A DNA stretch of 63,622 bases, filler included, from Sanchytrium tribonematis (Eukaryota), in the NCBI GenBank assembly GCA_018985235.1. It is 7 parts of 7 records of this genome, joined end to end, with 100 filler letters (N's around TTAATTAATTAA, not from the genome) between each part and the next. Parts side by side here need not be neighbours in the genome. Positions count along the whole stretch, not along the records: positions 1 to 28,844 come from JADGIG010000056.1; positions 28,945 to 34,682 come from JADGIG010000580.1; positions 34,783 to 40,511 come from JADGIG010000581.1; positions 40,612 to 46,307 come from JADGIG010000582.1; positions 46,408 to 52,090 come from JADGIG010000583.1; positions 52,191 to 57,862 come from JADGIG010000584.1; 1 more part is not named here. One strand, 5' to 3'. Each line of letters starts with the position of its first letter. The stretch's first letter is position 1. The notes below the pieces were generated by a model, which did not search any database, was not told where the DNA came from, and was given only the letters and a program-made list of their open reading frames with translations. A program made the position numbers and the translations under genes. Of this stretch, positions 209 through 56,911 are shown one piece after another.

Positions 209-725
209 ATGGCCAAGAAGAAGGTGCGTGAAGAAGAAGAGACTTACGAAGTAGAAAACATTGTTGATCATAAAAATGACAAAGGAAAAGTTGTATATCT
301 TGTAAAGTGGAAAGGCTACGATTCAGGAGACAATACCTGGGAGTATGAAAAAAATCTATCCGGTTGCCCAGAGCTTTTAAAAGAGTATAAAAAAGTTGCT
401 AATATTGGCCAAGAAAAGCAAAAATCTGTTAGTAAGTCTAGTCCCAAAAAGCGCAAAAGTGCAGCAAGTAATGCCAGTCCTAAGAAGCGAAAATCCACTA
501 GTAGATCCAAATTTACAGATGACGATGTTTTGATGATTAGCAATATGGATAGATTGGAAAATGGAGAAATTGAGTGTCTCATAATATTTAAGGACACAAA
601 TGATGAGGTAGCACTGCCATTGTCTGTAGTTCGATTTAATGCTCCGCAAAAGTACTTTAAATTTATATAGAGTCATCGATTTTTTTGAGTCGCATTTAAA
701 ATTCACGGAGGAGTATACTGAATAA
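209..725 (+). CDS. HP1/Swi6-like chromodomain + chromoshadow protein; exons 209-651, 671-725
   Basis: N-terminal chromodomain (YEVENIVDH..YLVKWKGYDSGDNTWE). Removing the 19-nt intron 652-670 restores the chromoshadow C-terminus PQKVIDFFESHLKF. Confidence 0.88.
652..670 (+). other. 19-nt spliceosomal intron GTACTTTAAATTTATATAG
   Basis: GT..AG ends; removal skips the in-frame TAG and completes a conserved chromoshadow motif. Confidence 0.88.
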
Positions 726-743
726 ATATGCTCATTTCTGCCA

Positions 744-995
744 TTACTCATTCTTATTTATTAGCTCTTCTACAAGTCTAAAGACTTCTATATCAACTTC
801 AGGCTCATTCAAGTGATCGGCTACAATAAATTGTTTTTGATACTTTTTACCCAATTTTTTTGCTAGGTTTCCATTGTTACCAAATAAATCTGTTGAATTA
901 TTTTTAATGCCTACGGATAAGTTGGATATGTTCTGACCACTCTCACCAATATATATGAAGAAGGAATCATTTGAAATTTTTACTATGTCGATCAT
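744..995 (-). CDS. Small protein, possibly proteasome assembly chaperone 4 (PAC4/PSMG4)-like
   Basis: SFFIYIG..LSVGI..ST.L..LAKKLGKKYQKQFIV pattern resembles PAC4. Confidence 0.45.
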   Translation of the reverse strand: MIDIVKISNDSFFIYIGESGQNISNLSVGIKNNSTDLFGNNGNLAKKLGKKYQKQFIVADHLNEPEVDIEVFRLVEELINKNE

Positions 996-1023
996 TAAAA
1001 TTCAAATTTGGGTGAATCAAGGG

Positions 1024-3921: not shown

Positions 3922-3970
3922 GTTTTAATTACCCCAATTTATTTTTCTTGGATAAAAAGAACACTTTGGT

Positions 3971-4388
3971 TCAAGATGTGAGAGATTGATCATTTGTTTT
4001 TAGATCTTCTTCTAACTATGTAAGTCCAAATTACAGATTCATTGTGCATCGATGACCTCAGCAATTGGTATAAAATAGGTTCTTTTGAAGAACTTATTTT
4101 CCTTTGATTATCTTCAAATTGTTCTGGGAGAGTGTTTGTCTCTGTGCTAAATACCTGTAGCGTATATGCGAGATCAAAATGTTGCAAAAATTCATAAATA
4201 ACAGCTAGACCCATTTTTCCCATTTCAGAATTGGTAAATGTATTTGAAGCTTGTAAGTTCTTTTCATTCTTTAAGATTTTGTAGATTTTTGCTCTTAATT
4301 CTGCCTTAGATTTGGCTAATTCACCACTCTCAGCTAAACTTTTTAGTATTTTCTGCTGCATTTCCAATATTTCATCATTTTCATTCAT
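3971..4388 (-). CDS. FOP/FGFR1OP (CEP43/CEP20)-like LisH protein; exons 4388-4035, 4015-3971
   Basis: LAESGELAKSKAELRAKIY and VIYEFLQHFDLAYTLQVFSTET motifs; candidate 19-nt intron 4016-4034. Confidence 0.8.
4016..4034 (-). other. 19-nt intron GTAATTTGGACTTACATAG
   Basis: GT..AG, A at -6, same consensus as the other tiny introns. Splicing gives the acidic tail LEEDLKTNDQSLTS. Confidence 0.65.
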
Positions 4389-4494: not shown

Positions 4495-5303
4495 TTATCC
4501 AATGGGATGTTCCGCGTTTGAATTTGAGGCATTTCGATGTGACCATTGTCTTGGTTGAAGTGCTTCAAACAGGGAAGTGTTAAGTCTGTCAAATTGGAAC
4601 GTTTTTAATTTAACAGCTTCATGAGTTTAAAATTACGCTCTTTTAAATTTGGAAAGTATCTCAGAATTGAGGGTATGCGTTCTGGTTGAAGAACCTCATC
4701 TAAAGTCAATTTTTGTATATATAAGAGCGGCTTCATATGATTAGGTATCACAAACTGAGTAAAATCCAATTCAATGATATTTGGGTTGTCATTTAAGTTG
4801 AGAATTCCAAGAGTCAAAGCATTTTCGGAGCTTCTACGTTGACCTCCTAAAATAAGGCATTTAAGTTTTTTAAAGTACATCAGGTTCTTAAAAATCACAC
4901 CTGGTCTACTCGCTTCAAGTTTAAGTTTCTCCAATTTAGGAAGCGCTTCTCCAAGGTCTTTTAATTGATCTTGGAAATCCCTGTTATCTGGCGCAATTAA
5001 GATTTCCAAGGTCTCAATATTTGAAAAACCATCTAAATATTTGATAAGAACAATCAAATCCTGTGTGGTAGAGCCTAATCCTGGAGAAAATCCAGTCACC
5101 ACCAGCTCCTTCACCCACAATTTATAATCATAAAAATTTTGCCTCTTTCTAGACAGCAAGAATATTTGTTGCTGAACCACATGTTTGTAGTAAGATTTCA
5201 AATATTCTCCCGTGAGAAATTTGTTAACTAGATAGCAGTCTTTCATGCCATTAAAGCTTGAGATATGTGAGATTAACTCCATTGGCAAAAAGGGTTGAGT
5301 CAT
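4495..5303 (-). CDS. F-box/LRR-like protein; unspliced ORF ends at 4605, candidate 20-nt intron 4617-4636 extends it to 4495
   Basis: N-terminal LPMELISHISSF F-box-like motif and LRR-like repeats (LPKLEKLKL, FKKLKCLIL, FPNLKE). Confidence 0.55.
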
Positions 5304-10590: not shown

Positions 10591-12958
10591 ATGTTCCAAG
10601 CTATCAGAATACAACCATTTCTGGTAGACGAAGAAGACATAGACATTTTAAATCCGGTGCAAGACTATTTAGCTCTGTCAAATGCACTTGTTAAGTGTAA
10701 AATAAATGCAGATGACAATGGGTCTATTTTAATTAGCGAATTGCAGTGCCACTGGCTAGAATTCTTGTGCGGCCTAACAGGTCCTTTGTCTGCCATACCA
10801 TTATACTATGATAGAGTACCACATCCTTTTTCTACTATTTTATTTTTTAAGTTCTCAACCAGCGAATTAAAAACTCACAATACTACGAATTCATTGGAAC
10901 TTGACAAGACCATGAATACAAATGAAAAGTTTTGGAGCAAATGTATGTCCTTATTGAATGTTCTGGAGACATACCCTCAATACGTACAGGACATCTGTCT
11001 AGATTGGATGGAACAGGCGATTTATGATGATACGATACCCTTTCTTCATTTAACTGAAATTGCAAAAGTTTATTCACAATTTGCTTTAGATACAAGATTA
11101 TCTCAACACTTCATTTCGGAAGAAAAGGCACTTGAAAACATAAAAATTAATGATACATGCGAAATAGAGAAATTGGTCCTTCCTTCTGAAAAACTTATCA
11201 GAGAGTGTTTGGAAAATGTTACTTTATACTCTAAAATTATTAGGCTCTGGTCTTCTCTTCCTAATTGTAAAGGAATTTTTGACTTCGACTTGACAGATTA
11301 CTTTCTGACTGAAATGGAAAATACTGACAAAGATGGAAACTCTTGGAAAAACATAGTTGTTTTAGCGGATTTTTGCAGATATCTGCATGCGAAAAACCAT
11401 ATATACATCTTGTTTCATTTGTTTGTACATGGAAGTGATAAAAATTCAAAAGAGGTTTCTGTGCCCTCTTCTAAATTGAAGGAATTTATATTGTCAGTTA
11501 TGATCGACACAATTGATCAAGACGATATTGATACTTTAGTCACCACGCTATTAAATCCAGAGTTGAACCCAATCAAATCTTTATCAAGCCATTTTCACAA
11601 TAAGCTTTTAGTTTCATCTCGCCTCTTATCAGCTTTCGAATACATATTACCATACTACATGCCTAGCCATGAAATAGTAGGCAATTTACTCGAGTTTTTA
11701 GTCAAAAAACAACTGCAATTATTGGAAAGCTACAAAATTATTAGAACTATTCTGATTCATTTTGCCGATTCTTACCACAACAAAAAAGATCAAGATTTTC
11801 AAATATTTAAATATACAGAATTACTCCTTGTAGTGTTTTGCTTTAAACATTCTACGAGAAACGAGCAATACTACGATTTGTTAAGGGTATATTTAAGTCT
11901 GATATTAACATCCGAAAACGATCCCGCAATTGATCAATTTTACATGAGCGTATGTAAGCTTTTCAATAACACCGAAAAAGAAAATTTACTCTTTTTAAAC
12001 CATCTTGACATTGATAGGTCTGTGTTCTTAGACATTTTATGTAAAATATTAAGCGATCATCCTTTACTTCAAATTCATTCTTTAGAGGCAACTTGGGAAA
12101 TATTGAAAGACTTTAATAGTGGTAACTCCTACTTCGAACTCTACATATCTTTCATAAAGTATCTTCAACACAGCAAACGACTATCAGATTTTCATGAATT
12201 TCTTCAGCCAATTTATCAATTAAATACGAATTGGAAAATAGAACGAATAATAGAAGCCTGTAATTTATTATCAGGTCTGATTATATCCTCACCATCCACA
12301 GTCCAGCACCATCTAACAATGCTAAAGTTCGACGAAAATCACGTAATTTCCCATTTGGTTATGCTGTTGAACCATCCAATATCTGATGTGTTCTGGAGTG
12401 TATGTCAAGTCCTATTTTACGTATTTGTAAATCGGCAATGGGTCGAGAAGCCTTTAATATTGAAATGCTTTTCAAAGGTTGAGGATTCGTACTGGAGCAA
12501 CATTTTATTGCTGTTGGCTACAGAAAACTATGAATTTAACGCTTCGAAACTTAGAAAAATCGATTTGAAAAAATATCACAACTTGTTTCTCTCTGTTATG
12601 AATGAACAACTACCAGATATTAAAGATCTCCATTTTGAAGTTTTATCTAATGTAAGCAAACAAGTGAATGCGCTTACGCCACTTCCAAGACTTAATGCTG
12701 AGTAAAAACCACTAATTTAGTTCAAATTTAGATGATATGCTGGGCTATAAAAATCAACTGATTTCTATTGCAAATGAAATTCCTAATCATGCCTCACATT
12801 CGCATCTGGACATTTCGGAAGCGGAACATGAATTTAAATTCGATGATGTATTTGAACCTATAATAATGAACCAAGATGAAATATTAGACAAAGATTTTTC
12901 GAGAAAAATTTCAATCCTTGATGTACCAGATCAAAATTACAATGACATTCTTGAATAA
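10591..12958 (+). CDS. Large helical/ARM-like protein of unknown function; exons 10591-12701, 12721-12958
   Basis: The 704-aa and 73-aa ORFs join in frame on removing the 19-nt intron 12702-12720. Confidence 0.7.
12702..12720 (+). other. 19-nt intron GTAAAAACCACTAATTTAG
   Basis: Contains an ACTAAT branch-like motif with A at -6; removes the TAA and fuses two ORFs in frame. Confidence 0.82.
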
Positions 12959-13247: not shown

Positions 13248-14030
13248 ATGAGCTTCCCTTCCCCAAAAGACATTGATTTCAATAATTTATCATTTGAAAG
13301 CTCTTCTTACTTTAATCACCATCAAGATTCACCGCTGAATAAAGAAAGACACTTTAATCAGCCCACTTCTGGAGAGAAAAATTCTGAAAATGTTTTTAGG
13401 AAATTATATTCAAATGATCAGGAAAATAGCGGGATTGTTCAGTTTGCAAATGCAAATGATAAAAAAGTACAATCTGGAATTAGATTTGTTAAATCCAAAC
13501 CATTAACTGTCCCTAGGTCACCTTTATTGCGAACTAAATATCGAACAAGATCGACGAAGCAAGAGGAAGAAAAACACGGATTTGTAGCCCAAGAAATGCC
13601 AAACTTTAATCTGAAAAAAAGGCGTGTGATTCAAAAGCCTAAATTAATACCCGAGTCGCCTTTACTTCACACAAAAGAAAGAGCCAAAAAGAGAGAAATT
13701 TACGATGTTGAATTAGAAAATAAGAAGAAAGAAGAAGAAGACCTTTCCAGAAAGATGCAAGAAGAGTATGATAAACAGCAAGTTAAAAAAGAGAGAGAGA
13801 AAAGGACTTTCAAGGCAACAAGTATTGCACATTACAAGCCCACCAAAATCGAAAAATCCAATGTTCCTTTGACTGAACCAAAAACACCAAATTTTGTGCA
13901 TAAGCACAAGGATGACTCAGACTTAGACATATCTTATGAGGAGCTTCAAACTACTGATCGACAAATTGTTCGCGATAAACTCGAAAATATTAGGAAAGGT
14001 ATTCAAAATTTAAAACAGATAAAAGAATAA
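13248..14030 (+). CDS. TPX2-like microtubule-associated protein
   Basis: Repeated LTVPRSPLLRT / PESPLLHTKERA / FKA / PLTEPKTPNF motifs. Confidence 0.78.
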   Translation: MSFPSPKDIDFNNLSFESSSYFNHHQDSPLNKERHFNQPTSGEKNSENVFRKLYSNDQENSGIVQFANANDKKVQSGIRFVKSKPLTVPRSPLLRTKYRTRSTKQEEEKHGFVAQEMPNFNLKKRRVIQKPKLIPESPLLHTKERAKKREIYDVELENKKKEEEDLSRKMQEEYDKQQVKKEREKRTFKATSIAHYKPTKIEKSNVPLTEPKTPNFVHKHKDDSDLDISYEELQTTDRQIVRDKLENIRKGIQNLKQIKE

Positions 14031-14040: not shown

Positions 14041-15871
14041 TTATTTTTCGTCTTTTTTGGAAGGGAAAAAGTGACTCGATCCAAATTTTCCAGGCAAAAC
14101 TGCAGATTGTGGGCCAGATTGAATGAAATTCAAATTTGTAGTAATCTTAGGTTTTTTCTTTTCCTTCCGCTCGGCGTCTGCGATTTCAACGGGATCGCTT
14201 AAATTCGAGTCTAAGTTACCAGAGAGCTCTTCTCTTGTATTTGTTCTTTTCCAATCCATGTTAAGAGTCGATCCAGCCTGAGGATGTCTTTTAAGTCCGT
14301 CAAGCCTATCCTTTTTGTGTAATATATCTGATTTTGATTTTTTTAGCTCGTTTGTGGGCTTTAATGGTTCCAGAGGCGTAGACGCATTTCTCTAAATTAA
14401 TAATATCAACCTCATTTCGTTTGCTAGTTACTTGTTGCATGGACGGCTTAAAAGGTCCTTCCCATTTTCTTCCAGTAATGAAGGGATGCATCTTCGCTTG
14501 TTGCGGTGAAAAACGTTTCAATGGATTCAGTTGCAGTAAATTCATTATAAAATCAATAAGGACGTGCCTGTTGTAAAATTCTTCATCCATTTGCTCCTTT
14601 GTCATTTTTCGAAATACAGGATAATGCATGATAATGTCTTCCAATGTTGTTTGCTGAAAGTACTGTTTGGAAGGCTTTTCCCTACAATTTTTTTCGCGGC
14701 TAAATTGTTCCATACTTTTCAGCTGGTAAGTATATTTCTTGTCGCCATTGGAAACTTTGTTAAAATAGTCCTTAGTTTTCTTTCCTACGTCAAGCATGTA
14801 AGTAGGAAGATTTCCAAGCATTTTATGAATTCTACAAATTTGGTTGTATTCGGATGTTCCTGGAAATATTGGTAAACCTAGAAATAGTTCAGCCACAATA
14901 CAACCAAGACTCCACATATCAATGCTACTGCTGTAATCTAAACCTAATATCACCTCTGGGGCTCTATAAAATCTGGATTGTACATAGGTATACATAGTGG
15001 ATTGCTCGTAGCATGCGCTACCAAAATCAATGACCTTAATTTTTGTATCAGTCAATTCACACAACAATATGTTTTCTGGTTTTAAATCACAATGAACAAT
15101 TTTGGCTTGTCCTAAGATGACTAATGCGTCTAGCATTTGTGACGTGAAATCTCTTACCAATTGAATATTGAAACCTTTGAAACCATTTTGTTTAATTAAA
15201 TCATACAAATTTATACTCAGTATTTCAAAAACTAGACACAGATGTTTTCTAAATATAAAAGTATCATAAAGCTGTATCAACGGCAACTCAAAAGGGGGTT
15301 GACTTTGGATAGTCATCTCATTTTTTGGGCTGGTTTGAGCTGCTTCTTTTTGAAATATATCAGTTTGAAATTGCGGTGATTTTTCCAAGTTTCCAAGCTT
15401 CCGCTTCTCTACTTTAGAATTTTGCTGGTTGCGAGCAGCGTTTTGTTGATCTTGTCTATGTGCCAAAAGCTTGGATTGGAAATTATAAATTTGATTTAAC
15501 ACCTTGATTTCCATCATTGACTGATTGAAATAAGCGGTCTTATTTTTAATTATTTTAACTGCTACTTTTCTTTTACTAACTAGATGAATGCATTTGACGA
15601 CTTGCCCAAAAGTTCCACAGCCCAGCAATTCGACAATCTTATACTGTTTATCCAATTTGTCTCCAATGACATCATTAACGTACAGAATATAGTCGAATTC
15701 AGAGTTATCGTGTCCATCATTGCCATAAGGAATGCTATTATTTGTAAGCACTCTTCTTGGATTATTATTGGGATTAAACTTAAAGCCAGGGTCACATGAT
15801 GAATAGTATTCAGCCAGATTCAGCGTTCTTTTTCGCAAAGAATTAGCAGATCTTCGCTCAACTTGCTGCAT
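14041..15871 (-). CDS. YAK1: DYRK-family kinase Yak1; exons 15871-14411, 14391-14041
   Basis: NPRRVLT..DYILYVND, HCDLKPEN, YTYVQSRFYRAPE. The 19-nt intron joins the 14041-14259 ORF. Confidence 0.92.
14392..14410 (-). other. 19-nt intron GTTGATATTATTAATTTAG
   Basis: Phase-0 removal puts the kinase in frame with the downstream MDWKRTNT ORF. Confidence 0.82.
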
Positions 15872-20432: not shown

Positions 20433-22998
20433 ATGAGCTTTCGTGCTTCACATTTGAAGAGTATCTTGGATCACCTTGGGCAGGAGGAATATACTCGAAT
20501 TGTTAACGCAGCTCGATACAATGATCAAACTCAATTAGGTCAATTGGTATCTGAAATGGATCCTCGTGATTTTGACTTTGCAATCCATTTTGTGAACAAA
20601 ATTAAGGAACGATTCAATAACAATGTCAGTATTTACAAGCAATTTCTGGATATTCTTAGCACATATAGGAGAGATAAAAGAACAATAGTTTCTATATACA
20701 ATAAGGTCAAGACCTTATTTTCGTCCCAACCAGATCTGTTTGAAGAATTTCAGAAATTTTTACCTGACCCTACACTAGGAACTCAGCCAGTTCAAGAAGA
20801 GGATATACAATTGCAATCTTCATTTGTTTCTCCGGAGGAAGTTGCATTTTTTGATAGAGTTCAGGTTTTGCTGGGCTCTAAAACTGTGTATGAAGAATTC
20901 TTAAAGGTAATTAATCTTTATAATCAAGATATCATCAACAAAAATATCTTGGTAGAGAGAGTTGCCTATTTTTTACAAAAGTCTCCAGAATTATTTTCGT
21001 GGTTTTGTAACTATGTAAATTTTAAACCTCAAGATAATATTAGGCGAATTGTTAATCAATTTCATACAAAAGGAATCACTTTAGATGAGCCTTTTTCATC
21101 AGTTTCTGTAAAACAGCATTTCGACAAAGACCATTTAGGATTGGGCCGCAAAGATGTTCAACTTTGGAAAGTATCTGGAAGCTACAGACTTATGCCAGAA
21201 TCCGAAAAGAAATCACCATCATCAGGCAGAGATCCTCTTTCAAATAGTGTGCTAAATGATACTTGGGTATCCCATCCTACATGGGCCAGTGAAGATGAAA
21301 ATTTTAGTGTTCACAGAAAAAATATTCATGAGGAAACCTTACATAGGACTGAAGATGAGAAATTTGAGCTTGATATGAAAATTCTTACTAACGATGTTGC
21401 AATTCGAGTACTGGATGCAATTTTTAAAGATGTAAGCGCCATGTCTGAGGAAGATAAGAAAGTTTTTGAATTGAAAGAAGACGATTTTCCAACAACATTA
21501 TACAAAAAAGCAGTCAGGCAAATATATGATGATGTGCGAGGAGATGAAATGATAAACGCAATTCAGAAGAAACCTTCCATCGCACTGCCAATAGTACTGC
21601 ATAAGCTTAAGATGAAGCATGAAGAGTGGCAAAAAGATAGACGGGATCATGATCGTGCTTGGAGAGACAACTTCAAGAAAAGTTTTTGGAAAGCGCTTGA
21701 CTATCAGGGTGCGAATTTTAAATTACAAGATAAAAAGTTTTTTACTCCCAAGACTTTATTCCTTGAAATAGAAGAACTTCATGCCAGCAAGCAGAAGCTT
21801 TTCAAAAACAAAAGTATACCAGAACTGCAAGCTGACCTAACTTTGGATTTTGACGATGATACAATACTGAAATGTGTAATTTTCTTTACCAATCTTTTTA
21901 AAAGAAGTTTAAGCACTACAGAATATAAAAAGTTTGAGGAGTTTGTCAATTTGTTCCTGTTACCATTATTTAATTGTCCAATTGATGACCCTTACGATTT
22001 ATATAACCCTAGTGAAATGAAGGACGATACAGAAGATTTAGAAATGCCTGATACGCTAGGGGATGTCTTTTTCCTTCCAAGTGCATTTTATTTAAGTTTG
22101 AAACTAATTCACTTATTATTCGTTAGGATTAAAGAATTGAAAAAATCCAATGAGGCATTGATAAAAGATCCTCCAAAGGCACCCAACAAAGAAGCAGTAC
22201 TTTTAAGTTATGCCTGTGTTCCGAATCCAACCGAGCAAATACACGGAGATAGATACGAATACATAATCACTCAACTCTATCAATACGTTCAGACATTTCA
22301 GGATCAAAATACTTTCGAAGAAAATTGTCGAAAATGCTTTGGTCTTGACGGGTATAAAGTATTCACTGTCGACAGAATATTGCAAACATTGGCTAAAGCT
22401 GTAACTAACATTTACTTAGGTCATTCCATTATTTAATGAGGAAGTATTTCAGAAGCATATGGAGTTGATACAAACGTATGCGAATATTCAAATTGATGAT
22501 TACAGCAGTCAAGAGCAATATTTAGAAAAAGCAAAAGAACTTATAAAAGGCGATGATTATGTATTTAAAATATGGAGAGAAAATTCCACTTCCACTTTTA
22601 ATATTCAGCTTATCTTAAACCAAAATTCTGCCGAGGAGATTCCAAATGAGGAATGGTCAACATATGTCGACAGCTTTTTGCATGCACCAACAGCGGAACC
22701 CATTGATTTGGGACCACAAAAGCCATTCTTAAACAGGAATGTCAATCACGAACTTAGTGAACACGATATCGTCCTCAAAAATGGTATGCAATTCAAATTG
22801 AAGGTTAATTCATACATAATTGAATATATTCAGGATACTGAAGATGTTTTTGAGAGAATCCGAGAAAGTGCTGCCGTTGCACCTGACCTTGAAGCTCTCA
22901 ATCTTAAAGTCCATGAATTACTATCGAAGGCTGTTGATACCTCACAAGTCGACGCAATAGACGAGTGGTATGAAATTGAACCTGTTAGATACGAATAA
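20433..22998 (+). CDS. SIN3: Sin3 histone deacetylase corepressor; exons 20433-22400, 22420-22998
   Basis: PAH domains, HDAC-interacting domain (SYRLMP..VLNDTWVSHPTWASED) and C-terminal PFLNRN. A 19-nt intron joins the two ORFs. Confidence 0.92.
22401..22419 (+). other. 19-nt intron GTAACTAACATTTACTTAG
   Basis: Phase-0 removal fuses the 20400-22436 and 22459-22998 ORFs (KA|VIPLFNEEVFQKHMEL). Confidence 0.88.
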
Positions 22999-32143: not shown

Positions 32144-32887
32144 TCACAAATATTTGAGCAACTCTTTTTTTTTAATTTCTACCAATTTGGCTTCTATTTC
32201 TGCATCCGATGGCAACTGGCTTAGGAAATGAATATCCTGTGGATATATACCAAATAAATTGCCATTATTCTGATTAATTTTTGCCATTTCTTTCTCTTCT
32301 AATTCTTTTGCCAATTTTAATGCGTCTTCATCCCCATAATATTCAATGGGCATTACTGGGATATCTGGTATTTCATTCTCTAATGCTTCAAATTCACGCT
32401 GCTGTTTCATTAATAATTTGACACCTTCTAATTCCCTAGCACGTCCAAAATATCTATAGCCATTTTTAGTATCCTTTGCAATAAATGCTTTAGATGGCTC
32501 AATTCTAGCATAATTAGGACCTCCTAGTTCTATAATACGCTGCTCCCAATCCTCCTTCTCACGAATTAGTTCATTTATTTTATCATTCATTTCTCTAATT
32601 TGAAATTCTTGCAAACTTTCATCCTGAATCATTTCTACTTTACGGGATATATCTTCAATTAACTCGAATCTAAACATCTTTGCATCTTCTAATGACTCAC
32701 AATCTTTGGTATTGACTGGTCTAGGCGTATATCTTTTTAATAATCCGCCTTCATATAATTCTTCCAAATCATATTGAGTGATTTTAAAATCATCTAATGC
32801 ATTTGTAAATGTTCTTTCAAAGTTTGTAAGGTCATAATGGGATGTTAGCGTGATTAAATCAGCATCAATTAAATTTGGTTTGCCCAT
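32144..32887 (-). CDS. ISY1: Pre-mRNA splicing factor Isy1 (divergent N-terminus)
   Basis: ISRKVEMIQD..FQIREMNDKINELIREK..WEQRIIELGGPNY, GYRYFGRARELEGVK. Confidence 0.9.
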   Translation of the reverse strand: MGKPNLIDADLITLTSHYDLTNFERTFTNALDDFKITQYDLEELYEGGLLKRYTPRPVNTKDCESLEDAKMFRFELIEDISRKVEMIQDESLQEFQIREMNDKINELIREKEDWEQRIIELGGPNYARIEPSKAFIAKDTKNGYRYFGRARELEGVKLLMKQQREFEALENEIPDIPVMPIEYYGDEDALKLAKELEEKEMAKINQNNGNLFGIYPQDIHFLSQLPSDAEIEAKLVEIKKKELLKYL

Positions 32888-37350: not shown

Positions 37351-37481
37351 TTTGCAACTTGATTGGACAATCAATAATGGCTCAAAATGGCTTTCAATAA
37401 CCCATGTTCATTCGCCATAACATTGATCAAATCATCTTAATGTTTTCCCATTTAAATGAACCATTGCCCTTTTTCAATAAA

Positions 37482-37847
37482 ATGAAATCGCTCTTAACCC
37501 GCAAAGAACAATTACTAACCTGGTTCACCATCATGTTCCTGATAATCAATTCCAGCAATTCCTTTATCCAATTACCCTATCTATTCGTGATTGTATCCAT
37601 ATACCGAATTGATCCAAAATGGTTAACAAAAGCACATAAAATTCACAAAATCACATTTGTGGTATACTTTATTTTTTTATTATTAAGAAATATTGATATT
37701 CTTATTGCACTTCATACTTATCCGAATGTTATTTTCCATCAAATACTAGATTTTTTGATAAGTTTGGGATATTTAGTGATATCTGTAAGAATGGATTATT
37801 TATTTGGTAAGCATATTGAAGATTTAAATGATCCAACTGATCAATAA
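37482..37847 (+). CDS. Small membrane protein, tandem paralog 1
   Basis: TRKEQLLTWFTIMFL..YRIDPKWLTKA..RMDYLFGKHIE. Confidence 0.7.
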   Translation: MKSLLTRKEQLLTWFTIMFLIINSSNSFIQLPYLFVIVSIYRIDPKWLTKAHKIHKITFVVYFIFLLLRNIDILIALHTYPNVIFHQILDFLISLGYLVISVRMDYLFGKHIEDLNDPTDQ

Positions 37848-38200
37848 CCGAATAAATCATTTTATTTATTTCGTCTTCTTTTACTTTATGGTAATTCAGA
37901 TGATTGACAAATCTTTATCTCGGAGTTTGACCAAAAGATTCTCCATTCAGGATCAAGTTGATCCTAGCAATTAACCAGCTGAAAAAAAGACTTTAGAATT
38001 TAACAGATATAGTAAATGATTTAGTAAACATAATTTGTTTTTGTTAAAAAGTCAACATTACTTGATTGGACAATAAATAATGGGCTCAATAATGGCTCAA
38101 AATAACCCATGTTCATTCGTCATTTCAATCTACAAATCAATTCAATCTAATCATCTTAATGTTTTCCCATTTAAAGGACCATTGCCCCTTTCAAAACACA

Positions 38201-38581
38201 ATGACAACGCTCTTCACCCGCAAAGAACAATTACTATCCTGGTTCACCATCATGTTCCTCACTCTCAACTCATTAAATTCAAGTATCCAAATCATTTATT
38301 TGTTCTTTTTTGTATCCATTTACAGAATAGATCCAAAATGGTTAACAAAAGCATATAAATATCACAGAATCACCTATGTGATATTATCTTTTATCATTTT
38401 ATCAAATAGTATTAGTATCATGGCATTTTCCAATGATTTACATGCAATTAATAATCAAATTCTTGATTTTATCAAATATTTGGGATATTTAGTGATTTCT
38501 GCTAGAATGGACTATTTATTTGGTAAGCATATTGAACATGTCAATGATCCAACAGATCGATTGATTTCATTAACAGAATAA
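38201..38581 (+). CDS. Small membrane protein, tandem paralog 2
   Basis: Same motifs as 37482-37847; the upstream DNA is duplicated too. Confidence 0.7.
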   Translation: MTTLFTRKEQLLSWFTIMFLTLNSLNSSIQIIYLFFFVSIYRIDPKWLTKAYKYHRITYVILSFIILSNSISIMAFSNDLHAINNQILDFIKYLGYLVISARMDYLFGKHIEHVNDPTDRLISLTE

Positions 38582-40611: not shown

Positions 40612-40720
40612 GGATTTAATTAAGTCATACGATGATATTTTACAATATGAAATTGAAAGACTCAAACAGGCACCTATCGACCTATTTTATAAATTGCAAT
40701 TATCAAAACGTAGACATAAA

Positions 40721-43700: not shown

Positions 43701-44743
43701 AGATCAATTATTTGAGATTTATGAATTTTCTGATTTCAACAGCAGATGGTCAGCCAGACATCTAGCTTGGCATAATCATAGATGCTACTTTGAGAATAAT
43801 GGCACTCCATTCTACTTTGAAGACGTGAAAATGAGCTTTAAATTGAATCAAAATGTCAAAGATATCCAACATGAATATCCGGGTATTTCACGATTATTAT
43901 CCAGAAATATACCATTTATAAGTATTGATGAGTGTAATATCTGTCTAGGGACCCACAAAGTTCCAAATGGGCAAGTCAAATGCCTCCACAACCATTTAAA
44001 ATCCATCATCAAATTAGATCCACCAGATCCAATTAAAACATTAACTCAACTAGATATAGATTTATACTTATTACAACATAAAAATGACCTTATTAAGGGT
44101 TTAGATCCAGATGAATATCAAGTATTCACAGATGGATCATTCACAAAGGAGAAATCCAAAATTGGATATGTGATTATAAATAATGGTCAAATCCACATGA
44201 GATCGTATGATATCACACATTTGAACATCCACTCAAGTACTAGATCAGAAATAATTGGCATCATCATGGCAAGTCATGATAATTTGATTAATTTCAACAA
44301 ATCTGTCCATTTTTATTGCGATTCAAAAGCAGCAATTTCCACCGTAACAAATTACAAATCAGGTAAATCATTTAGAGGAATGCATTCTGTAGATTTATTA
44401 GTGCAGAGTGATTTATTACACAAGCCATTTTTACTCAAGTGGGTGAAAGGCCATGCAAAATCTCATGGAAATAATTTGAGTGATTTATTGACTAGAATTG
44501 AGTCTAATAGCGATAATTGGCCTATTAGCTTAGTATATCATTGTCATAATTTGAGTAGAGCCACATTTAAGGCCAAAGAGAAAGAGAATGACAGATTGAT
44601 TGCACTTTTGCATCGATCATTGAAACTGCCAGATTTGCAGAGAGAAAAAATTGAAGGGCTAGTCAAAGTCATTTTAAATAATTACTTTAATAAATAGATG
44701 AGATGATGCTGCCATGCAGCACATCGAATTCGGTAAAAAAAAA
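40721..44743 (+). mobile_element. Non-LTR retrotransposon (LINE): Ubl-like leader, APE endonuclease, RT, Cys/His motif, RNase H; one frameshift near 43091; 3' hairpin and A9 tail
   Basis: APE: FNNIDGL, LAETK, GVYVP, IGDVN, PDHL. RT: TPGED, LRYIAL, QYGYK, LDSKAAFD, GVIQGGCVSP, FSDD. RNase H: FTDGS, RSEI, YCDS, WVKGHAKSHGN..D. Confidence 0.93.
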
Positions 44744-45139: not shown

Positions 45140-45324
45140 ATTCTTGGGACAAAGCAGCCTCGAATGATCTTTTTAAACAATAAATTAATAATATCAAAAT
45201 GATTTGGAGTTGTTTATTTGCGTGGTTTAAACGACTCTGCAAGAAAGTTTATTGAAGTAGCATGTGCATTTGACACAAGATCCGTCTTTCATAACGATGC
45301 TCTAAATGATGGTGATGTTATTTT

Positions 45325-45475
45325 CTACATTCGATCATCTCCAATAGGTAAAATCTATTTATTCAGGAAATACCAAATTTAAATCAGTAGAAAATAGATC
45401 TACATTCGATCATCTCCAATAGGTAAAATCTATTTATTCAGAAAATATCAAATTTAAATCAGTAGAAAATAGATC
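45325..45475 (+). repeat. Tandem duplication, 2 x 75 bp
   Basis: CTACATTCGATCATCTCCAATAGG...GAAAATAGAT repeated with 2 mismatches. Confidence 0.9.
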
Positions 45476-45819
45476 GCCGCCCACATCTACATATGATAAT
45501 ACATTTTTACTTGGTTCAGATCTTCCTGATATGGCTGGATCTGCACCAACGATGCAGTTAGAAAATGCAGAAGATGGAAATATTGATGTTATTGAATATT
45601 TGAAACCATTAAACGCTGCAAATTTAGATGACTCGGCAGAAGTGACATTAAATTGACTAAATGCCAAACCTAGCAGTTATTTTGAAGTCGTACCTACAGT
45701 GTGTGCAACAGACAGATCCTTCAAAGATTTGAAGTATCAAGATTCACACCCATATATGAATACAGACGTTGAAAATATTCAGAATTCAAGTTACAGTCGG
45801 GACCGTTAATTGCAGCACA

Positions 45820-46307
45820 AAGAGTTAACAATGGCGAAGAAGCAATAAAAATAGGTAAGATCCATTTGATTAAGTTATTCGGCTTCTACAACTTCGGGAT
45901 CCAACTAAAGAATCTGTGTATAGTCATGGTTTTTCAATGTTAAGTTGGAATATAATGGCCCGAGCCGGAAATATAGTTTCTGTTTGTTTGGGGCATATGG
46001 CATGGCAAAATGATGCTTTATGTATTTATTTTGCCCATATGAAAAATGATCAGACGGCAAATCGATCACGGGACCCCCATCACATTTACGCAAACAGTAT
46101 TAAACCTGAAATTTGTCCCATTCTAGAACTTGCTATTTATCTAATTGTTTACCACTTTCGTCTACTCAAATTACACTGTTTCATGGAAATGGTCAGTAAG
46201 ACAGATTATGACACAAGGAGAATCCAACTGCAATACAGCAGGAAAGAAATCTTCAATTTCACCTGAACAAAGACAAAAACAACTAGAAATGAAACTAAAC
46301 AACATTG
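45820..46307 (+). mobile_element. Degenerate Crypton-like tyrosine-recombinase transposon fragment
   Basis: LSWNIMARAGN..WQNDAL..FAHMKNDQ..RDPHHIYANSIKPEICPILELAIY; frameshifts; cut by the contig end. Confidence 0.7.
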
Positions 46308-46407: not shown

Positions 46408-46642
46408 CACCATATGCTATATAAATGATAAAATCGTGATAGATCCACTAAAAGAAGAAGAATTACTAGCAGATGGCATTTATTCCATTATTGTCAATGA
46501 GCACGATGAAATATGCTCATTTGTGCCATTAAAAATGATGAAAATGGATCCAGAACAAGTTGAAATGATGATGCGATTGGCAGTTGAGAAATCCAAAGAT
46601 TTGCGCAAATTTGTGCGATTTCACGTCAGAAAAAATAAATAA
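46408..46642 (+). CDS. 3' part of a second RRP45-like copy (inverted repeat of 49633-49869)
   Basis: Protein identical to the C-terminus of 49635-50375; four synonymous nucleotide differences. Confidence 0.85.
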
Positions 46643-49629: not shown

Positions 49630-49634
49630 ACAAA

Positions 49635-50375
49635 TTATTTATTTTTTCTGACGTGAAATCGCACAAATTTGCGCAAATCTTTGGATTTCTCAACTGCCAA
49701 TCGCATCATCATTTCAACTTGTTCTGGATCCATTTTCATCATTTTTAATGGCACAAATGAGCATATTTCATCATGTTCATTGACAATAATGGAATAAATG
49801 CCATCTGCTAGTAATTCTTCTTCTTTAAGTGGATCTATCACAATTTTATCATTTATATAGCATATGGTGATGGAGATGGGATCAAATAAGAGCTGTAAAA
49901 GGGTGGGATTGCGGATATTAGCAGGAATTAATTTGTGATTTTCATCGACGTGCTGTTTCTTAATTTGCAATAACTGTGCCAAAATGCCAATAATATACGC
50001 ATCTAATTCATTTCCATCATTCTGTAGTGGGATTAATTGTAAATTCAACTCAAATCCAATGCTTCTTGTGACCATTAATGATTCTAAATCAACGCATTTC
50101 TCAATCACATTTGTAATCCATCTCTCTTTAAGGGGACATTGTAAATTGATTCTTTGTCGTTCGATTCGTGTGTAAATCAGTTCACTAGAACAGTAAATCA
50201 TTGTATTTCCCAATTTGACCAATGTGCCATTTGCATCTTGCTGGATTTGGATGTTTCTATAGCTAGATAAAGATCTGCCGTCTAATCTGACATTATTAGA
50301 AAGCGCAGAGGCAATAGTTTGTTGATTGATGCGTATCATCCGTTTAAAGAGGGGCATTTTTTGCAAATAATGCAT
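49635..50375 (-). CDS. RRP45: Exosome complex subunit Rrp45 (RNase PH family)
   Basis: ALSNNVRLDGRSL..YR, VKLGNT, VDLESL, NDGNELDA, IDPLKEEE. Confidence 0.8.
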   Translation of the reverse strand: MHYLQKMPLFKRMIRINQQTIASALSNNVRLDGRSLSSYRNIQIQQDANGTLVKLGNTMIYCSSELIYTRIERQRINLQCPLKERWITNVIEKCVDLESLMVTRSIGFELNLQLIPLQNDGNELDAYIIGILAQLLQIKKQHVDENHKLIPANIRNPTLLQLLFDPISITICYINDKIVIDPLKEEELLADGIYSIIVNEHDEICSFVPLKMMKMDPEQVEMMMRLAVEKSKDLRKFVRFHVRKNK

Positions 50376-50399: not shown

Positions 50400-50840
50400 T
50401 TACTGAAATACAGGCGCATTACAAAATGCATCGCATAGCAATCTTGTTTCTGGTGTTTGTTTGGCTGGAGGTGCCACATCTACAGAATCTGAATCTGCTG
50501 CAGATTTTGGTGGAATTTGAGTTGGAATCACAACTGGAGGACCCTGAAAAGTCGTTGATGTCACTAAATGATCAATGTTGACATCCGGAAACGCCTTTCG
50601 CACAGCATTTCTCGCTTTCACAAACTTGTCATAATTTTGATTCAATTCTTCATTCGTTGCCGCAATGAAGCACTGCTGTTGTAATTCCAATTCATACCCT
50701 GTTGCATTAGATGCAGGTGTCTGATCTAAAGCATGAAAGCAATTCTGTTCTGCGACATGGTTTGGATCCGACAATGCAGATTTTGGTAATAAAAAGAATA
50801 CTTCCAAAACAGCTGATAAAATCAGATTTGTGAGAATCAT
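50400..50840 (-). CDS. Putative secreted protein; C-terminus shared with the gene at 51101
   Basis: Signal-like start; ends PETRLLCDAFCNAPVFQ. Confidence 0.6.
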   Translation of the reverse strand: MILTNLILSAVLEVFFLLPKSALSDPNHVAEQNCFHALDQTPASNATGYELELQQQCFIAATNEELNQNYDKFVKARNAVRKAFPDVNIDHLVTSTTFQGPPVVIPTQIPPKSAADSDSVDVAPPAKQTPETRLLCDAFCNAPVFQ

Positions 50841-51100: not shown

Positions 51101-52090
51101 ATGTTACTTTCAATTGCCATTTTCGCATCCTGTCACATCTTACCAATTCAACTTCAAAAAGCACTAAATAATGCAGTCGAATATGCACAAAGACATCAAG
51201 ACAAATTCATAGCATGTTTAGGTGAAGACACACCTGATTGTCAATCAGGTTTAAGTTAAATCAGGGAAGCCAGATATGGATGCATTTACAGCACATGGCT
51301 AAAAAATATAAAGACTGTCATGCATTTCTTTTTCGATATTTATTTGGTTCAAGTCATCAAATCGTAAAGCGAATGGATCTCGGAACAGAACTGTCTGATA
51401 CAGAAGTAAGGCACTCAATTGAAATTGAGCTACCCTCTCATCCTCAAATCGAAACACGGTGGCTAATATATGAAAATCTATTCCGTCATTTCAGTGAAAT
51501 CGTGAAATTGTTGTTGTTACTATTTCTTTCCATAGGTGGAACCGGTGCCTCAATTGCTGCTACTGTATTTGAAAATCAAGCAACAAATGATGCTTCTGTC
51601 ATTGCGGAACATGCTCGACAGGTATTAGAGACGACTAAAGCGATTTATAATGCAAATTGTCAATTTTCAGCTACTTGTAAAGATCTTCTCAAAGATTGTT
51701 CTACTTTTTGGGCTAGCTGTATTATGAATCCATTGATAGATCAAAATGGACAATGTATTATGTACGATCAAAAAGTTTACAAGCTTTGCGTTAAAAATGT
51801 GAAATCTGGTAATTGTGAAATTGTTCGTGATTCCAAATGGGATTCTCCAAGTTGTCTTGGATACGCAGAAACCAAATTAGCATTTAGGGAATCGGATTTC
51901 AATGAAAAGGAAAACACTGTAGGATTACATGCAGATCTCACTATTGCCTCTCTTGTTTTTGATTTTGCAGGTATTGCCTTGATTGGTTATTTATTAAATA
52001 ATTTGACAATGCTGGTAACTCAAGAAGATGCACCACCTAATGCACCAGATACAAGATTGCTATGCGATGCATTTTGTAATGCGCCTGTAT
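51101..52090 (+). CDS. Secreted/membrane Cys-rich protein with an apparent frameshift near 51250; 3'-truncated
   Basis: A signal-peptide ORF (51101-51259) overlaps a 2-TM Cys-rich ORF (51238 onward) ending PDTRLLCDAFCNAPV. Confidence 0.5.
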
Positions 52091-52190: not shown

Positions 52191-54318
52191 TTAAATTCTT
52201 TAAAAACATTATTGACAACATTCAAACGAAGGTCATTATAAATTGATAATGCTAAATCTTTTTCATTTGAGTCTATGTAATTCTTGTACAAGCTTCCTGC
52301 AATCAGATAATTCATTTGAATCCAAATAGGACCTCTCCAATAATTTTCGCCTTGATGACTAAACTCATCAGTTAGCGCTAAAGATCGTATACCATATTTG
52401 GTCCAAACTTGTTCACTTTTAATAAATTCTAACACAGGTTTTAGATGATCGGATTTTTTGGGAATAAGTCCCAACATGAGTGGGTAAATTGTTAGGTAGC
52501 CCTTGTGACAAATATGTTCGGATTTGCTTTCAGGATTCACAGTCAGGTCACAATAACTTTTCTCATCTTCATTCCAAAAGATAGTTTCCAAGTTTTTGAT
52601 GCCATTTTTATAGTCCTTGGCAAATCTCTCAGTGTCTTTAGAAAGATTCATAATCGATGCTAGGTCTCCCAATAGTTTAGCATAATACGTCATCCAAGAT
52701 ATGAGATCTAAGTGAAGCTCAGCGGGGTGGGCTGGTGTAGCTCTTGGATAATCATCCATACCACTTCCAAATAAATGCGTCTCTGTTCTTCCTCTCCATC
52801 GAAACACAAAATCGTTGTCATATTCTCTATCATATTGATTGCAAATTCCACGTTGTGTGTTTAGGAACCACTCATAATTCTTTTTTAATTTCGGATACAA
52901 CACCGCAATTCGTTGGTATATGACTTCCAAATTTTCTTTTTGTTTAAATTCGTAAGTGTCGACTTCAAATTGTTTTGTATCCTTGTCAGACAAATAGGAG
53001 CTTATCTTTTTGGCTCTTTCTGCCATAGCCGCCAAAGGAATGACCAATGTCGGTGGGTTTCCAACGTAAGTGTATTGTGTTTGGAATTCTTCCGGGACCT
53101 TGCTTCTTGCCTCGTCGCCAAGAATTTGTTCTCTTGCAATCCAACCATCGTCATCCATCATACCAAACCAGGATTCAAGAATATCTAATCTATATTATTT
53201 AAAATCTACCCTATATTCTCATTAAATTTACCTATCATGAGCAAATGAAATCCTTCGTCCCAAATGAAGCCTCTCGGAAAGAACGATCGACTAGGGGTAG
53301 ATGAATATAATTCCTTCATATCTGAGAATTCAGGGTTTTCACTATCTCTACGATGACCCAACTTGTTCTTTTCAGGAGAAAGAGAGTCGTCGTTGTCGAA
53401 ATAGTCCGCAAACTGAGAGTCGTAAGGATCGAAGTCATCTTCAATAAGTGGGGTTTTGTCAAGAATGTAATTACCGCTAAAGTATCCAATTCCTCCAATT
53501 GTAGAAGCGATTGCGATTCTCGAATAGTTTAGGTATTCGGAACTAAATAGTTTGTTTCCTTTCTTTTTGGTAATTTTGTTGGTTGAAACGTCAAAATTTC
53601 TTTCAAAGTTCTCATTAAATTGTTCGACCAAGGCACTTGATCTTTCACTAAACGCCTTCGCCAATTTCTTCGCACCCTTAACCCCTTTTTCTGTGAAAGC
53701 AATTTTGAGCTCAAAATCACCTGCCGAAAGTTGTCGAAAAATCGCAAGATTTGAATTTTCTTCAAAGCTACTTTCAAAATAAAGGTTTTGATATTCCCTC
53801 ACTTTGTTTGTAAAATATTGTTCCGCCATCCAAACCTTTCCAGAATCAACTTTAAATCCACTGTGTTTTATCATTTTAGCGTCACTTTCTATATGTAAAC
53901 CAAAATCCTTATTATTATGATATCCTGTAAAGCTAAAGAATTCTGCATTATCTTCTTGATTTATGAAACCATTCTTGCTATCAGTTCCAATATAAAATGC
54001 TAAGCCAGTGGGGCTATCTTGGCTTGTTGTTTTACCCTGAATTTTAGCGACCCATTCGTGTCCAGTTCTAACCCACTCAACAGTAAGTTTCAGGCCTAAA
54101 TCGTTTATAATTTCTTTAGAGTAATTTTCGCCGTCATGGATATCATAATAGTAAGAGTGTTCATAATTATTATCACAAACATGTCTAATGTTGGGATTTG
54201 ATGCATTCCACCACATTAATCCAGCAATTAAACCATCAGGTTCTTTCGTACGTAAACCCCAATAAGATTGCGGTCTAGAAACCCAATCGAAATTAGCAAA
54301 TATAGGCTGCAGCAACAT
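52191..54318 (-). CDS. CWH41: Mannosyl-oligosaccharide glucosidase I (GH63); exons 54318-53210, 53189-52191, 3'-truncated
   Basis: PSRSFFPRGFIWDEGFH, GWIAREQILG, SGMDDYPR, YWRGPIW. A 20-nt intron restores ENIGLDILESWFGMMD. Confidence 0.93.
53190..53209 (-). other. 20-nt intron GTAGATTTTAAATAATATAG
   Basis: Removal skips the TAG and restores a conserved GH63 segment. Confidence 0.88.
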
Positions 54319-54468
54319 GGGGAAGTTTCGAATGCAAGTGGTGAATTTTGATAAATTGTTAACATGTCAAAATGTTTAGGCATTTGTTTGCTAAACATCC
54401 TATCAATTATTTAAATTTCATATATCACTGACTTGGTCACACCAAATTAGAAAGGAGAGTTTCTAACA

Positions 54469-56911
54469 ATGCAAATTGCAGAAGTTTTTGAGGTCGCTCA
54501 AAAACGAACAAATCAAAAAAATACCAAGTCTTTAATTAAAATACTGAAAGATTCAGATACATTAGAATTTTCTGACGAATTTTTACGAAATCTGTCGCTA
54601 TTTATGCCTGCCAAATCTAAAAACACGGAAGTTCGGAGACTGATTAAATTGACTAGCGATTTTATTGAAGCAATAGATTCCGAAGAATATTTTGAATTCA
54701 GCGACATAATTCTAAATGCTTTAGTTTTCGGTACGTCGTCTAAGGAAAAGCAAGTTCGAGTACATTGTATTACTCTAGCTGTTTCTATTCTCAAACATCT
54801 TCAAAGCATTGAGCCTGAAGTTTATAAGAAAATTAAGAATAAGTTTCAGAAAAGCCTAACAGATAATGAGTCCAATGTGAGGGTGAGTGCTGTAGAAGGA
54901 TGCTGTGTACTTTTGAAAACGGATGAAGGAGAGAACATACTAGAGCGTCTTTTGGATATGTTACAATGCGACCCTAGTGCTGAAGTTAGAAAAAAGCTTC
55001 TAGAGGAGCTTCCCTTATCAGATGTGACGATGCCCTTCATTTTTGGTAGAATTAGGGATATCGATGAAAATGTAAGAAGGGCCGTTTTGAAGAAAATTTC
55101 TGATGAAGTCCATAATTTTCAACAAATTCCTTCTGTTTGGAGAACCAAAATCCTAACGTTCGGGTTTACTGATAGATCTAAAACGGTGCTTAAAGAAGCG
55201 GAAATGCTGTTAATCAACAAGTGGTTACCAAGCATTGAGCTTAATTTTTTAAAATTTGTTTTGGATTCGGGTTTAAGAAATATTGATGTCTTGAAGAAAA
55301 TTCTTACTTGTGTTTTGAATGCTTTTCAAGACACTAAATTCGTTTTTGATGATGAATTTTGGTTTAACATTAGCTTTGAATCAGTTCTTATGCTTGAATC
55401 TTACCTTACAATTCTGAAAGACAGAAATGACGATGTTACAGAATGCTTACCACAATTAACTAATTTTGTTGATATTTTGAGAGAATGTAACTCATGTTTA
55501 TTTAGATTTGAAGACGTACTTAAAGTCTGAGTCGGATGATAATGAAGAGGTGATGCGAGCATTGTTAAAAATCCATAGATTTTACGATAGTGGTGATGTG
55601 TTTGGTGTGAACAAATTGTATGGTCTATCGCGTGACTTGCTTCTTTTACAAAAATGCCCAGTAGAGCTTGTGGATGATTTGCTAAATATTTTGAAATTTT
55701 CTACTGATAGTAATCATGAATATTCCGCGTGCTTGATTGAACTATTTAATACTGTAAAGGATGATTCTGAAAATATGGAAACAAATAAGAGGTTTTCTTT
55801 AAGTTTTAACGAAACTGAAACAGGAATTAGCCCCCAGTATCAGAATGCTGTTATGATAAAAGGCCTTAAGATTTTAGGCTGCATCCTTGCGTCCGATATA
55901 AGGCAAATCAAAGAATGGTTTAATGTTGAAGAAATTATGGCATCAATAATTTGGCCATATCTTGAAAACTCAGTCCCCATAGAAACTCGAATTGAAGCGT
56001 TACATTGCTTAGGCATTTTGGCAATTGCTTATGATGATGTCGCAGTTTCAAATATCAGAGGGATTACCGAATTGATATTTAAATCCACACAACCTATCCG
56101 GTCATTATCTCTCCAGATATTTATGGATTTACTGTACTATTGGAAGCCACAGAAGTTTAGTGATTTGGATATCACACAACTGCTCATCAATTGCTTAAAT
56201 ACCAGAAAGGATGACCTTCTCTCTCTTGCTGTTGAGGGAATTGTAAAACTTCTTATCAGCAAGAGGGTAAATTCGGTTGAATTGGTCGAAAATTTATTGA
56301 TTTTGTATTTTCATCCTAGAACCACTACATTACCAAGAGTTCGGCAGTGCCTGGCATATTTGTTCAGTGGTTGGACGAAGGGCGAACCAGGAAATGTCCG
56401 GATTTTGTCAGATTTGTTGCTTCAAGTTTTGCTTAAGTTATTTCAAATTCATTCTCAAAACTCTGACTTGAACATGCTGGATCCGGCTGATATCGCGGCT
56501 CAAATTATTGATTGGATTGACCCTAGAAAAGCGTTCGAATCAGAAGATCAATTTGACTTTGGATATCAATGTGATATAGTTCAAAATTTGTTAAGAAATA
56601 TGTTTTCGTATACCCAGCTCCAGCTTCGATATAGTTCTGCGATCCTATCAAAGTTTTATATAGAAAAGGCTGGTAATGAGCGGCTGGCTGCTAATCTTCT
56701 ATACTTGGAGCTTTTGATGGAAAATATATCTGACAGCTCAGTGTTCACAACTCTTAAGCGATATAAGACTAGCACTGCGAAATTAGTTTTCAAAAGTTAT
56801 AAACTACCTGCAGACTTGGAAGACAAAATCAGGAGGGATGTTAATCAGCTTATTACTGGAGACAACAAAGTCTTGGAATTTGGAACTCCCTCAAAATCAA
56901 TTTTAGAATAA
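54469..56911 (+). CDS. YCG1: Condensin subunit CAP-G/Ycg1; exons 54469-55486, 55506-56911
   Basis: HEAT repeats, DPSAEVR, RIRDIDENVRR, AVEGIVKL, LYFHP..RVRQCLAYLF. A 19-nt intron joins the two ORFs. Confidence 0.9.
55487..55505 (+). other. 19-nt intron GTAACTCATGTTTATTTAG
   Basis: Phase-1 removal gives RE-Y-LKTYLK and fuses the two CAP-G ORFs. Confidence 0.85.

Follow-up and report, generated by a model that had tools for sequence, protein, structure and literature searches.

Very short spliceosomal introns are known from several lineages, and we compare with them here seven inserts of 19 or 20 nt that interrupt genes in a 63,622-nt stretch of DNA from Sanchytrium tribonematis (the whole stretch is called the window below). 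According to the excerpts of the cited sources that were available, the introns of Stentor coeruleus are 15-16 nt long, GU..AG and AU-rich, and their branch A is nucleotide 10 in those of 15 nt and nucleotide 11 in those of 16 nt, which corresponds to -6 from the 3' end (PMC9505925). The inserts in the window resemble them in the A at -6 (here the putative branch point), the GT..AG ends, the AT richness and an unusual N-terminus of the splicing factor ISY1, but Stentor belongs to an unrelated lineage and has thousands of introns without a strong branch consensus, whereas those in the window are longer, sparse and marked by a clear TWAY element. The introns found in the Bigelowiella natans nucleomorph, a relict green-algal nucleus with more than 800 introns in about 300 genes, fall in the same size class (18-21 nt, mode 19; PMC10245619, bioRxiv 10.64898/2026.07.09.736142), whereas a fungal nuclear genome with few introns is concerned here. 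Introns of 16-17 nt are described in mikrocytids, which are rhizarian parasites (PMC10245619), 17-nt introns in karyorelicts (bioRxiv 10.64898/2026.07.09.736142), and median lengths of 22-27 nt in the animal parasites myxobolids and dicyemids, with a myxozoan donor reduced to GTa (PMC13644364). Like mikrocytids, myxobolids and dicyemids, whose lineages are rhizarian or animal, our organism is a parasite, here of algae, and the inserts of the window span a narrow range of sizes, with a donor reduced as in myxozoans. As far as the available part of the source tells, the putative branch A of myxobolids recedes from the AG as introns lengthen, whereas here the A stands at -6 in 19- and 20-nt introns alike.

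On the fungal side, the same kind of excerpts describe for Encephalitozoon cuniculi introns of 22-76 nt with a strict GTAAGT-type donor, a TAAYTT hexamer and an extreme 5' bias, which are mostly located in ribosomal-protein genes (PMC3629993, PMC2483917, PMC6349667). The window is similar to microsporidia as an intron-poor genome of a parasite on the fungal side, and TAAYTT resembles the TWAYWT found here, but the inserts are only 19-20 nt long, their donor is only GTW, and none lies in the window's gene for ribosomal protein L30. Rozella has introns of about 30 nt in the partial source that we drew on. In the true fungus Yarrowia lipolytica, TACTAAC followed by 2 nt and AG places the branch A at -6 without a polypyrimidine tract (PMC2483917, in part); the geometry is the same as here, but in Yarrowia the introns are long (median 204 nt), and both donor and branch follow a strong consensus. 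Generally, tiny introns have evolved repeatedly and are an already known kind, and judged by their sequence the inserts have every testable feature of U2-type introns. The length of 19-20 nt is below that of any fungal intron we found in print, in sources available partly as excerpts, and the shortest one found there on the fungal side is 22 nt. There was no report of sanchytrid introns in the literature searched, which left most subscription journals uncovered, so that a passing mention elsewhere is possible. The main text of the sanchytrid genome paper (PMC8371127) contains "intron" a single time, in the title of a reference, and never "splic"; the available parts of PMC10459994, PMC9730499, PMC13393502, PMC8476143 and PMC4435813 contain nothing on sanchytrid introns.

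The window consists of seven pieces joined by six artificial N44-12nt-N44 spacers and is not one contig. All seven inserts run from GT to AG on the coding strand; six are 19 nt long and one is 20 nt. Counted from the 3' end, T at -8, W (A or T) at -7, A at -6, Y (C or T) at -5, W at -4 and T at -3 are present in all of them, and further upstream A at -10 and Y at -9 occur in six of seven each. The donor is GTA in six introns and GTT in one. The AT content is 78% for the introns compared with 65% for coding sequence, and the density is about 0.15 introns per kb of coding sequence in the window. The initial annotation had placed seven GT-AG introns of these lengths at the coordinates given below, with a T-W-A-Y-W-TAG ending, A at -6, T at -8 and GTA or GTT donors, and each of these statements was confirmed for 7 of 7. 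Its expectation that standard gene finders would miss such introns also held, since in a public protein collection all seven genes are present exactly as unspliced read-through products. We consider it very probable that the seven inserts are real spliceosomal introns, near-minimal in size and of the ordinary U2 type; that they are spliced, and that the A at -6 is used as the branch point, is what we infer from sequence. The evidence falls into tiers: four introns have homolog support, one combines frame rescue with the motif, one has an uncertain donor, and for one the evidence is the motif alone. Besides, the introns lie at relative positions of 0.42-0.90 in the coding sequence, five of seven in the last quarter (binomial 0.013, to which ascertainment may contribute), which is the opposite of the 5' bias in yeasts and microsporidia.

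The 20-nt intron is located in the glucosidase I (GH63) gene (53190..53209, minus strand, phase 2; gene from 54318 to the contig end at 52191). With the intron removed, the alignment of exon 1 with PDB 7r6j reaches residue 437 five residues ahead of the exon end, that of exon 2 begins at residue 443, and no residue is gained or lost; 4j5t agrees, and the Pfam match is divided 111 | 113 over the intron. We scanned metagenomes for GH63 and obtained 52 loci with 30-56% identity, of which 35 span the start of exon 2 and 34 were scorable. These loci are fungus-like by their intron signals and include several near-duplicates. It turned out that 26 of the 34 have an intron of 47-64 nt at the identical nucleotide and phase (13 GT-AG and 13 GC-AG), eight have no intron in the allowed range of -45 to +20 nt, and none has an intron at another offset. 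The GH63 intron at least is likely an old fungal intron that shrank, and not a new insertion. None of the 52 loci is sanchytrid-like, so the evidence from relatives consists of protein tails only. As a separate observation, a GC donor gives the best fit for 13 of the 26 shared-position introns (e.g. L009, L017, L018, L031 and L040), apparently a GC-AG intron conserved in one group.

Three further introns are supported by homologs. In the HP1/Swi6-like gene (209-725), the intron at 652..670 (plus strand, 19 nt, phase 2) is the best of 31 GT..AG removals scored against a profile of five HP1 homologs, with 21.1 bits compared with 9.9 for the next one and 5.8 for the unspliced sequence. Exon 2 encodes the last helix of the chromoshadow domain and aligns onto it without gaps; no sanchytrid ortholog was among the 22 matches of the HP1 search. 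In Sin3 (20433-22998), the intron at 22401..22419 (plus strand, 19 nt, phase 0) divides the Pfam Sin3a_C match into 1-121 and 123-281 in exact register. In the condensin CAP-G gene (54469-56911), which carries an intron at 55487..55505 (plus strand, 19 nt, phase 1), both halves match Cnd3/Ycg1 structures. Half of the protein is lost in both GH63 and CAP-G if the intron is not spliced.

The proteins of relatives provide a second line of evidence. As stated in the part of PMC8371127 that was available, Amoeboradix gromovi proteins were predicted by TransDecoder on genomic contigs, so an unrecognised intron would be read through and leave a short tail in the protein. The A. gromovi Sin3 (P0004) diverges from full-length homologs at the junction of the window gene, and a tail pattern V-x-x-x-Y-L-G is common to both. 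Another Sin3 relative (P0005) ends two residues past the junction, with V first, and its tail is too short to size the intron. The CAP-G orthologs P0042 and P0043, the latter from A. gromovi, are alignable up to the donor, continue with the same read-through Cys codon (from the T|GT donor) and stop within 7 codons. Judged by such tails, the intron position would be shared by 2 of 5 Sin3 and 2 of 2 CAP-G close relatives. The tails were tested by codon enumeration, and none of these sequences had been used to derive the motif. The P0004 tail fits 8 of 8 motif positions at 19 nt only, and the P0042 tail fits 8 of 8 at 20 nt only; for P0043 the stop falls on -8..-6 at 19 nt, which covers three positions. 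Under a random AT-rich null, each full tail fit (19 or 20 nt) has a probability of 0.006 and the three-position fit one of 0.07. A metagenome scan with Sin3 gave 45 pattern matches, none of which was confirmed. A 16-nt rival that the gene model proposed in CAP-G (55468-55483) was discarded, since residues conserved in both orthologs are lost with it. The homolog register, the shared GH63 position and the matching breaks in relatives support the earlier view that these are spliceosomal introns of a fungal lineage.

The remaining three introns are weaker. The one at 12702..12720 (plus strand, 19 nt, phase 2) lies in a gene without Pfam match (10591-12958), in which a stop occurs at the donor and removal adds 78 residues; its donor is the sole one in the same frame within 120 nt. 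In the Yak1-like gene (15871-14041), removal of 14392..14410 (minus strand, 19 nt, phase 0), which lies after the kinase domain and has an uncertain donor, lengthens the product by 82 residues, from 521 to 603 aa. Both of these were picked by a gene model that knows nothing of the motif (see below). The weakest of the seven is the candidate at 4016..4034 (minus strand, 19 nt, phase 0) of a small gene that has a match resembling FOP dimerisation (4388-3971); the product is 132 aa both spliced and unspliced. When a matrix is made from the other six introns, none of 563 further 19/20-mers reaches the score of this candidate. Removal restores the homologous protein in exact register for GH63, HP1 and Sin3 and within one residue for CAP-G. 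The statement of the initial annotation that most inserts rejoin open reading frames or complete conserved motifs is to be corrected at two sites: 4016-4034 rejoins nothing, and the Yak1 site completes no conserved motif.

Several comparisons addressed chance. The 19-nt pattern GTWN8TWAYWTAG occurs six times in the window, compared with 0.73 expected, and 0 of 100 shuffles reach six, an excess which is inflated because the pattern was derived from these very sites. With leave-one-out matrices, only 0-3 of 563 other GT..AG 19/20-mers score equally high. Removal lengthens the product at six of the seven sites and keeps its length at the seventh, whereas a product of at least the original length results for 4 of 211 further GT..AG 19/20-mers on the sense strand of 50 genes; this frame-rescue comparison is independent of the motif, and the sites had probably been picked partly on rescue by the earlier reader. 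The full 3' motif is present in none of 217 other sense-strand 19/20-mers. We also ran a gene model that was blind to the branch motif and used a flat length prior of 12-90 nt; under a milder penalty it made 13 joins and recovered four of the seven introns exactly.

A number of results weigh against this interpretation. The sample is small and post hoc, with seven sites in 63 kb. The motif-blind model missed the HP1 intron and 4016-4034 and preferred the 16-nt rival in CAP-G, and eight further joins of it (14-79 nt) lie between neighbouring open reading frames or in a retroelement, are without the motif and were set aside. The plain length histogram of frame rescue has no peak at 19 nt (4 of 180). 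Among 29 TWAYWTAG sites on both strands, GT is found 19 nt upstream six times and 32 nt upstream five times, with 1.3 expected per length. Both T at -8 and A at -6 are also found in 18 of the 217 other sense 19/20-mers, so these two positions are insufficient alone. For CAP-G, a spacing of 15 residues, where 5oqr has 16, leaves the choice between 19 and 16 nt undecided. Three of five Sin3 relatives (P0002, P0003 and P0006) continue through the junction unbroken, thus the Sin3 intron is not universal or those records are already spliced. In Yak1, a 40-nt rival (14392-14431) with a GTAA donor in the same frame has a higher matrix score.

The 3' consensus (A)(Y)TWAYWTAG looks like an ordinary U2 branch element. 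When the introns are fitted to TACTAAC, 3-5 of 7 positions match, and placing the branch A at -6 gives the best fit in five introns and a tied best fit in two, which points to this A as the branch point. The geometry leaves 14-15 nt from the donor to the A and five bases from the A to the intron end, and no polypyrimidine tract. In the mechanism that we propose, the U2 snRNA would pair with TWAY and bulge the invariant A at -6; this A would attack a GT found mainly by distance, the donor being reduced to GTW; a lariat loop of 14-15 nt would then close, and in the second step the AG that follows the branch by five bases would serve as acceptor, where no space is left for a polypyrimidine tract.

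With so little information in the donor, the GT is likely chosen by its distance from the branch-acceptor block, and we regard such a choice, and a genome-wide rule of 19-20 nt, as probable on present sequence. All seven introns of the window and the three deduced in relatives are 19-20 nt long, with Yak1 ambiguous. On the sense strand of 52 genes there are 16 TWAYWTAG sites; seven have a GT at 19-20 nt and are the introns, and the other nine perfect motifs lie in unbroken frames, seven of them with a GT at 17, 25, 27, 30, 31 nt and longer and one being the stop of the gene itself. The decoys at 27 and 30 nt are weaker because a stop-free intron of such length would keep the frame. The earlier proposal of a length-defined system gains from these perfect motifs with GT at other distances, with support that is indirect. 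An alternative is that the introns are real but form the short end of a broad distribution, with donors chosen by signal and not by a ruler and with longer introns also existing. The 40-nt Yak1 intron with its better donor would be an example; besides, there are only seven sites, stop-free introns of 3n length or off-motif introns would evade our tests, and in E. cuniculi lengths of 22-76 nt coexist (PMC3629993, in the part available). This reading appears rather unlikely, but deserves to be kept in mind: for six of the seven introns, the range of 20 to 48 nt is free of GT donors in the same frame, the decoy motifs named above remain in unbroken frames, and the ortholog tails fit fully at 19 or 20 nt only.

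There are three further alternatives. The window looks like a fragmented draft in seven pieces, and the inserts might be sequencing or assembly errors or pseudogenes in which GT..AG fits by chance. A 1-nt error, the alternative that the initial annotation itself had named, would however leave 6-7 extra residues, plus an in-frame stop in GH63, and the homolog register shows neither; further species have breaks at these donors, and an intron occupies the identical GH63 nucleotide in other loci, so that this explanation is hardly credible. The inserts could also be kept in the mRNA and bypassed by ribosomal frameshifting, or be spliced so poorly, as in microsporidia, that truncated products dominate. 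Six of the seven inserts are 3n+1, their frequent location in the last quarter is where retention costs less, and short microsporidian introns are reported to be spliced at less than 20-25% (available parts of PMC6349667 and PMC4435813). But frameshifting would lengthen the chromoshadow helix by about six residues, and in GH63 it is blocked by the stop with which the 20-nt insert begins, and retention would cost GH63 and CAP-G half of their proteins, which makes this explanation quite improbable. Low splicing efficiency is compatible with real spliceosomal introns, bypass without splicing is not. Finally, removal might be non-spliceosomal, through hairpin cleavage of the Ire1 or tRNA-endonuclease type or through excision at the DNA level. 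The hacA gene of filamentous fungi has a 20-nt intron, and this similarity of length is what speaks for it. Introns of the Ire1/endonuclease type have stable stem-loops at the cleavage sites and follow no GT..AG rule. By contrast, all seven inserts are GT..AG with a U2-like branch motif and form no stable structure (z from +0.33 to +1.18 in 7 of 7, with 20-nt flanks, against shuffles), and the GH63 position is common with normal spliceosomal introns, so we give this explanation next to no weight.

Two decoys and some further candidates bear on the near-minimal introns. On the minus strand, 52273..52289 in GH63 exon 2 has a perfect motif with GT at 17 nt, and its frame aligns through with 7r6j and 4j5t, so it is not an intron. 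The segment 28764..28788 (plus strand) in an Rpn5/CSN4-like gene, with a GTAA donor at 25 nt, has the highest matrix score in the window, but the PF22241 match (residues 22-115 of the open reading frame) continues in frame, and apparently it is not an intron either; a PDB search with this reading frame gave weak coiled-coil chance matches only. A possible eighth intron is located at 4617..4636 (minus strand, 20 nt), with a GTAA donor and T at -8, A at -6 and Y at -5 but an AAG acceptor, and its removal would extend the product from 247 to 277 aa. A 20-mer at 13999-14018 in the TPX2 gene was set aside, because it has no Y at -5 and removal would run into the convergent gene. In a non-genic, near-tandem duplication of 75 nt (45312-45477), two identical 19-nt GTA..CAG segments (at 45348 and 45423) fit the motif except for C at -3.

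The window also encodes ISY1 (Ntc30), the spliceosomal branching factor (32144..32887, minus strand), with a lineage-specific N-terminus, in which about 18 additional residues precede an altered R-N-x-E-K motif. The Pfam Isy1 match sets in at profile position 19, and the PDB alignments do so at human residue 19. The start M-[ASG]-R-N-x-[ED]-K is found in 69 of the 149 other ISY1 homologs returned, many of the others being variants or fragments, and the protein of the window has Thr in place of the Arg. Its only close relative found (P0071, 72% identical) has the same N-terminus: residues 8-35 are identical at 27 of 28 positions, compared with 44 of 82 in the C-terminal third (residue 166 to the end). 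There is no GT within the extra stretch, hence no hidden intron there. The excerpt of PMC9505925 describes the ISY1 N-terminus as projecting into the active site and contacting the intron backbone, and that of Stentor as non-conserved, which was conjectured to avoid a clash with the tight lariat. Based on two sequences of a fast-evolving lineage, it is conceivable, at somewhat less than even chance, that the remodelled N-terminus is an adaptation to the tight loop. For other spliceosome parts, the A. gromovi annotation includes PRP8, BRR2, PRP22 and a U2AF subunit (PMC8371127 supplement, available in part), and an Rfam search of the 63-kb window gave no match and no snRNA.

The widest reading of these data is that sanchytrids splice genome-wide by a ruler and have only 19-20-nt introns, the shortest in Fungi; that these arose independently of microsporidia by shrinking of ancestral introns; and that, in parallel with Stentor, the spliceosome was rebuilt for a lariat of 14-15 nt and exchanged the peptide of ISY1 that reaches into the active site for a new N-terminus that is strongly conserved. 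As a whole we think this reading less likely than not. If the seven introns are real, a true-fungal, independent origin would be added to those of the few lineages whose introns are close to the physical minimum, and an ancestral intron position of 47-64 nt could be traced down to 20 nt. The altered ISY1 would be a direct handle on how the spliceosome closes a very tight lariat, because fungal spliceosome parts are testable in yeast. Sanchytrid proteomes predicted without introns would include truncated proteins (at least 7 of about 50 genes in the window), which affects the counts of gene content and gene loss for the phylum.

The five closest relatives of the window Sin3 are 44-65% identical across the full query, and one of them is the EukProt protein of A. 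gromovi. In a quick single-gene tree of 36 of 38 rows, with two short rows excluded, the window, A. gromovi and the four other relatives form one clade with SH-aLRT 100 and a long stem; CAP-G of the window shares 69% identity with that of A. gromovi. Thus the host probably belongs to Sanchytriomycota or close kin, which narrows the fungal-like lineage assumed before.

The whole window has a GC content of 34% and is gene-dense. Genes are very compact, with many intergenic gaps below 30 nt and overlapping ends of convergent genes. A LINE-like element (40612-44697, plus strand) contains a long upstream reading frame and a reverse transcriptase-RNase H reading frame in a different frame, and is truncated by the contig end. 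At 45874-46266 (plus strand) there is a fragment without Pfam match, which we take to resemble a tyrosine recombinase of the Crypton type. The end of an exosome RNase PH-like gene is present twice in one contig in opposite orientations (46408-46642 and 49635-49880), possibly as an artefact of assembly or amplification. Two adjoining unannotated genes (37401-37847 and 38093-38581) have common sequence and look like a membrane-like paralog pair, and another two (50400-50840 and 51238-52090) have a common Cys-containing C-terminal segment.

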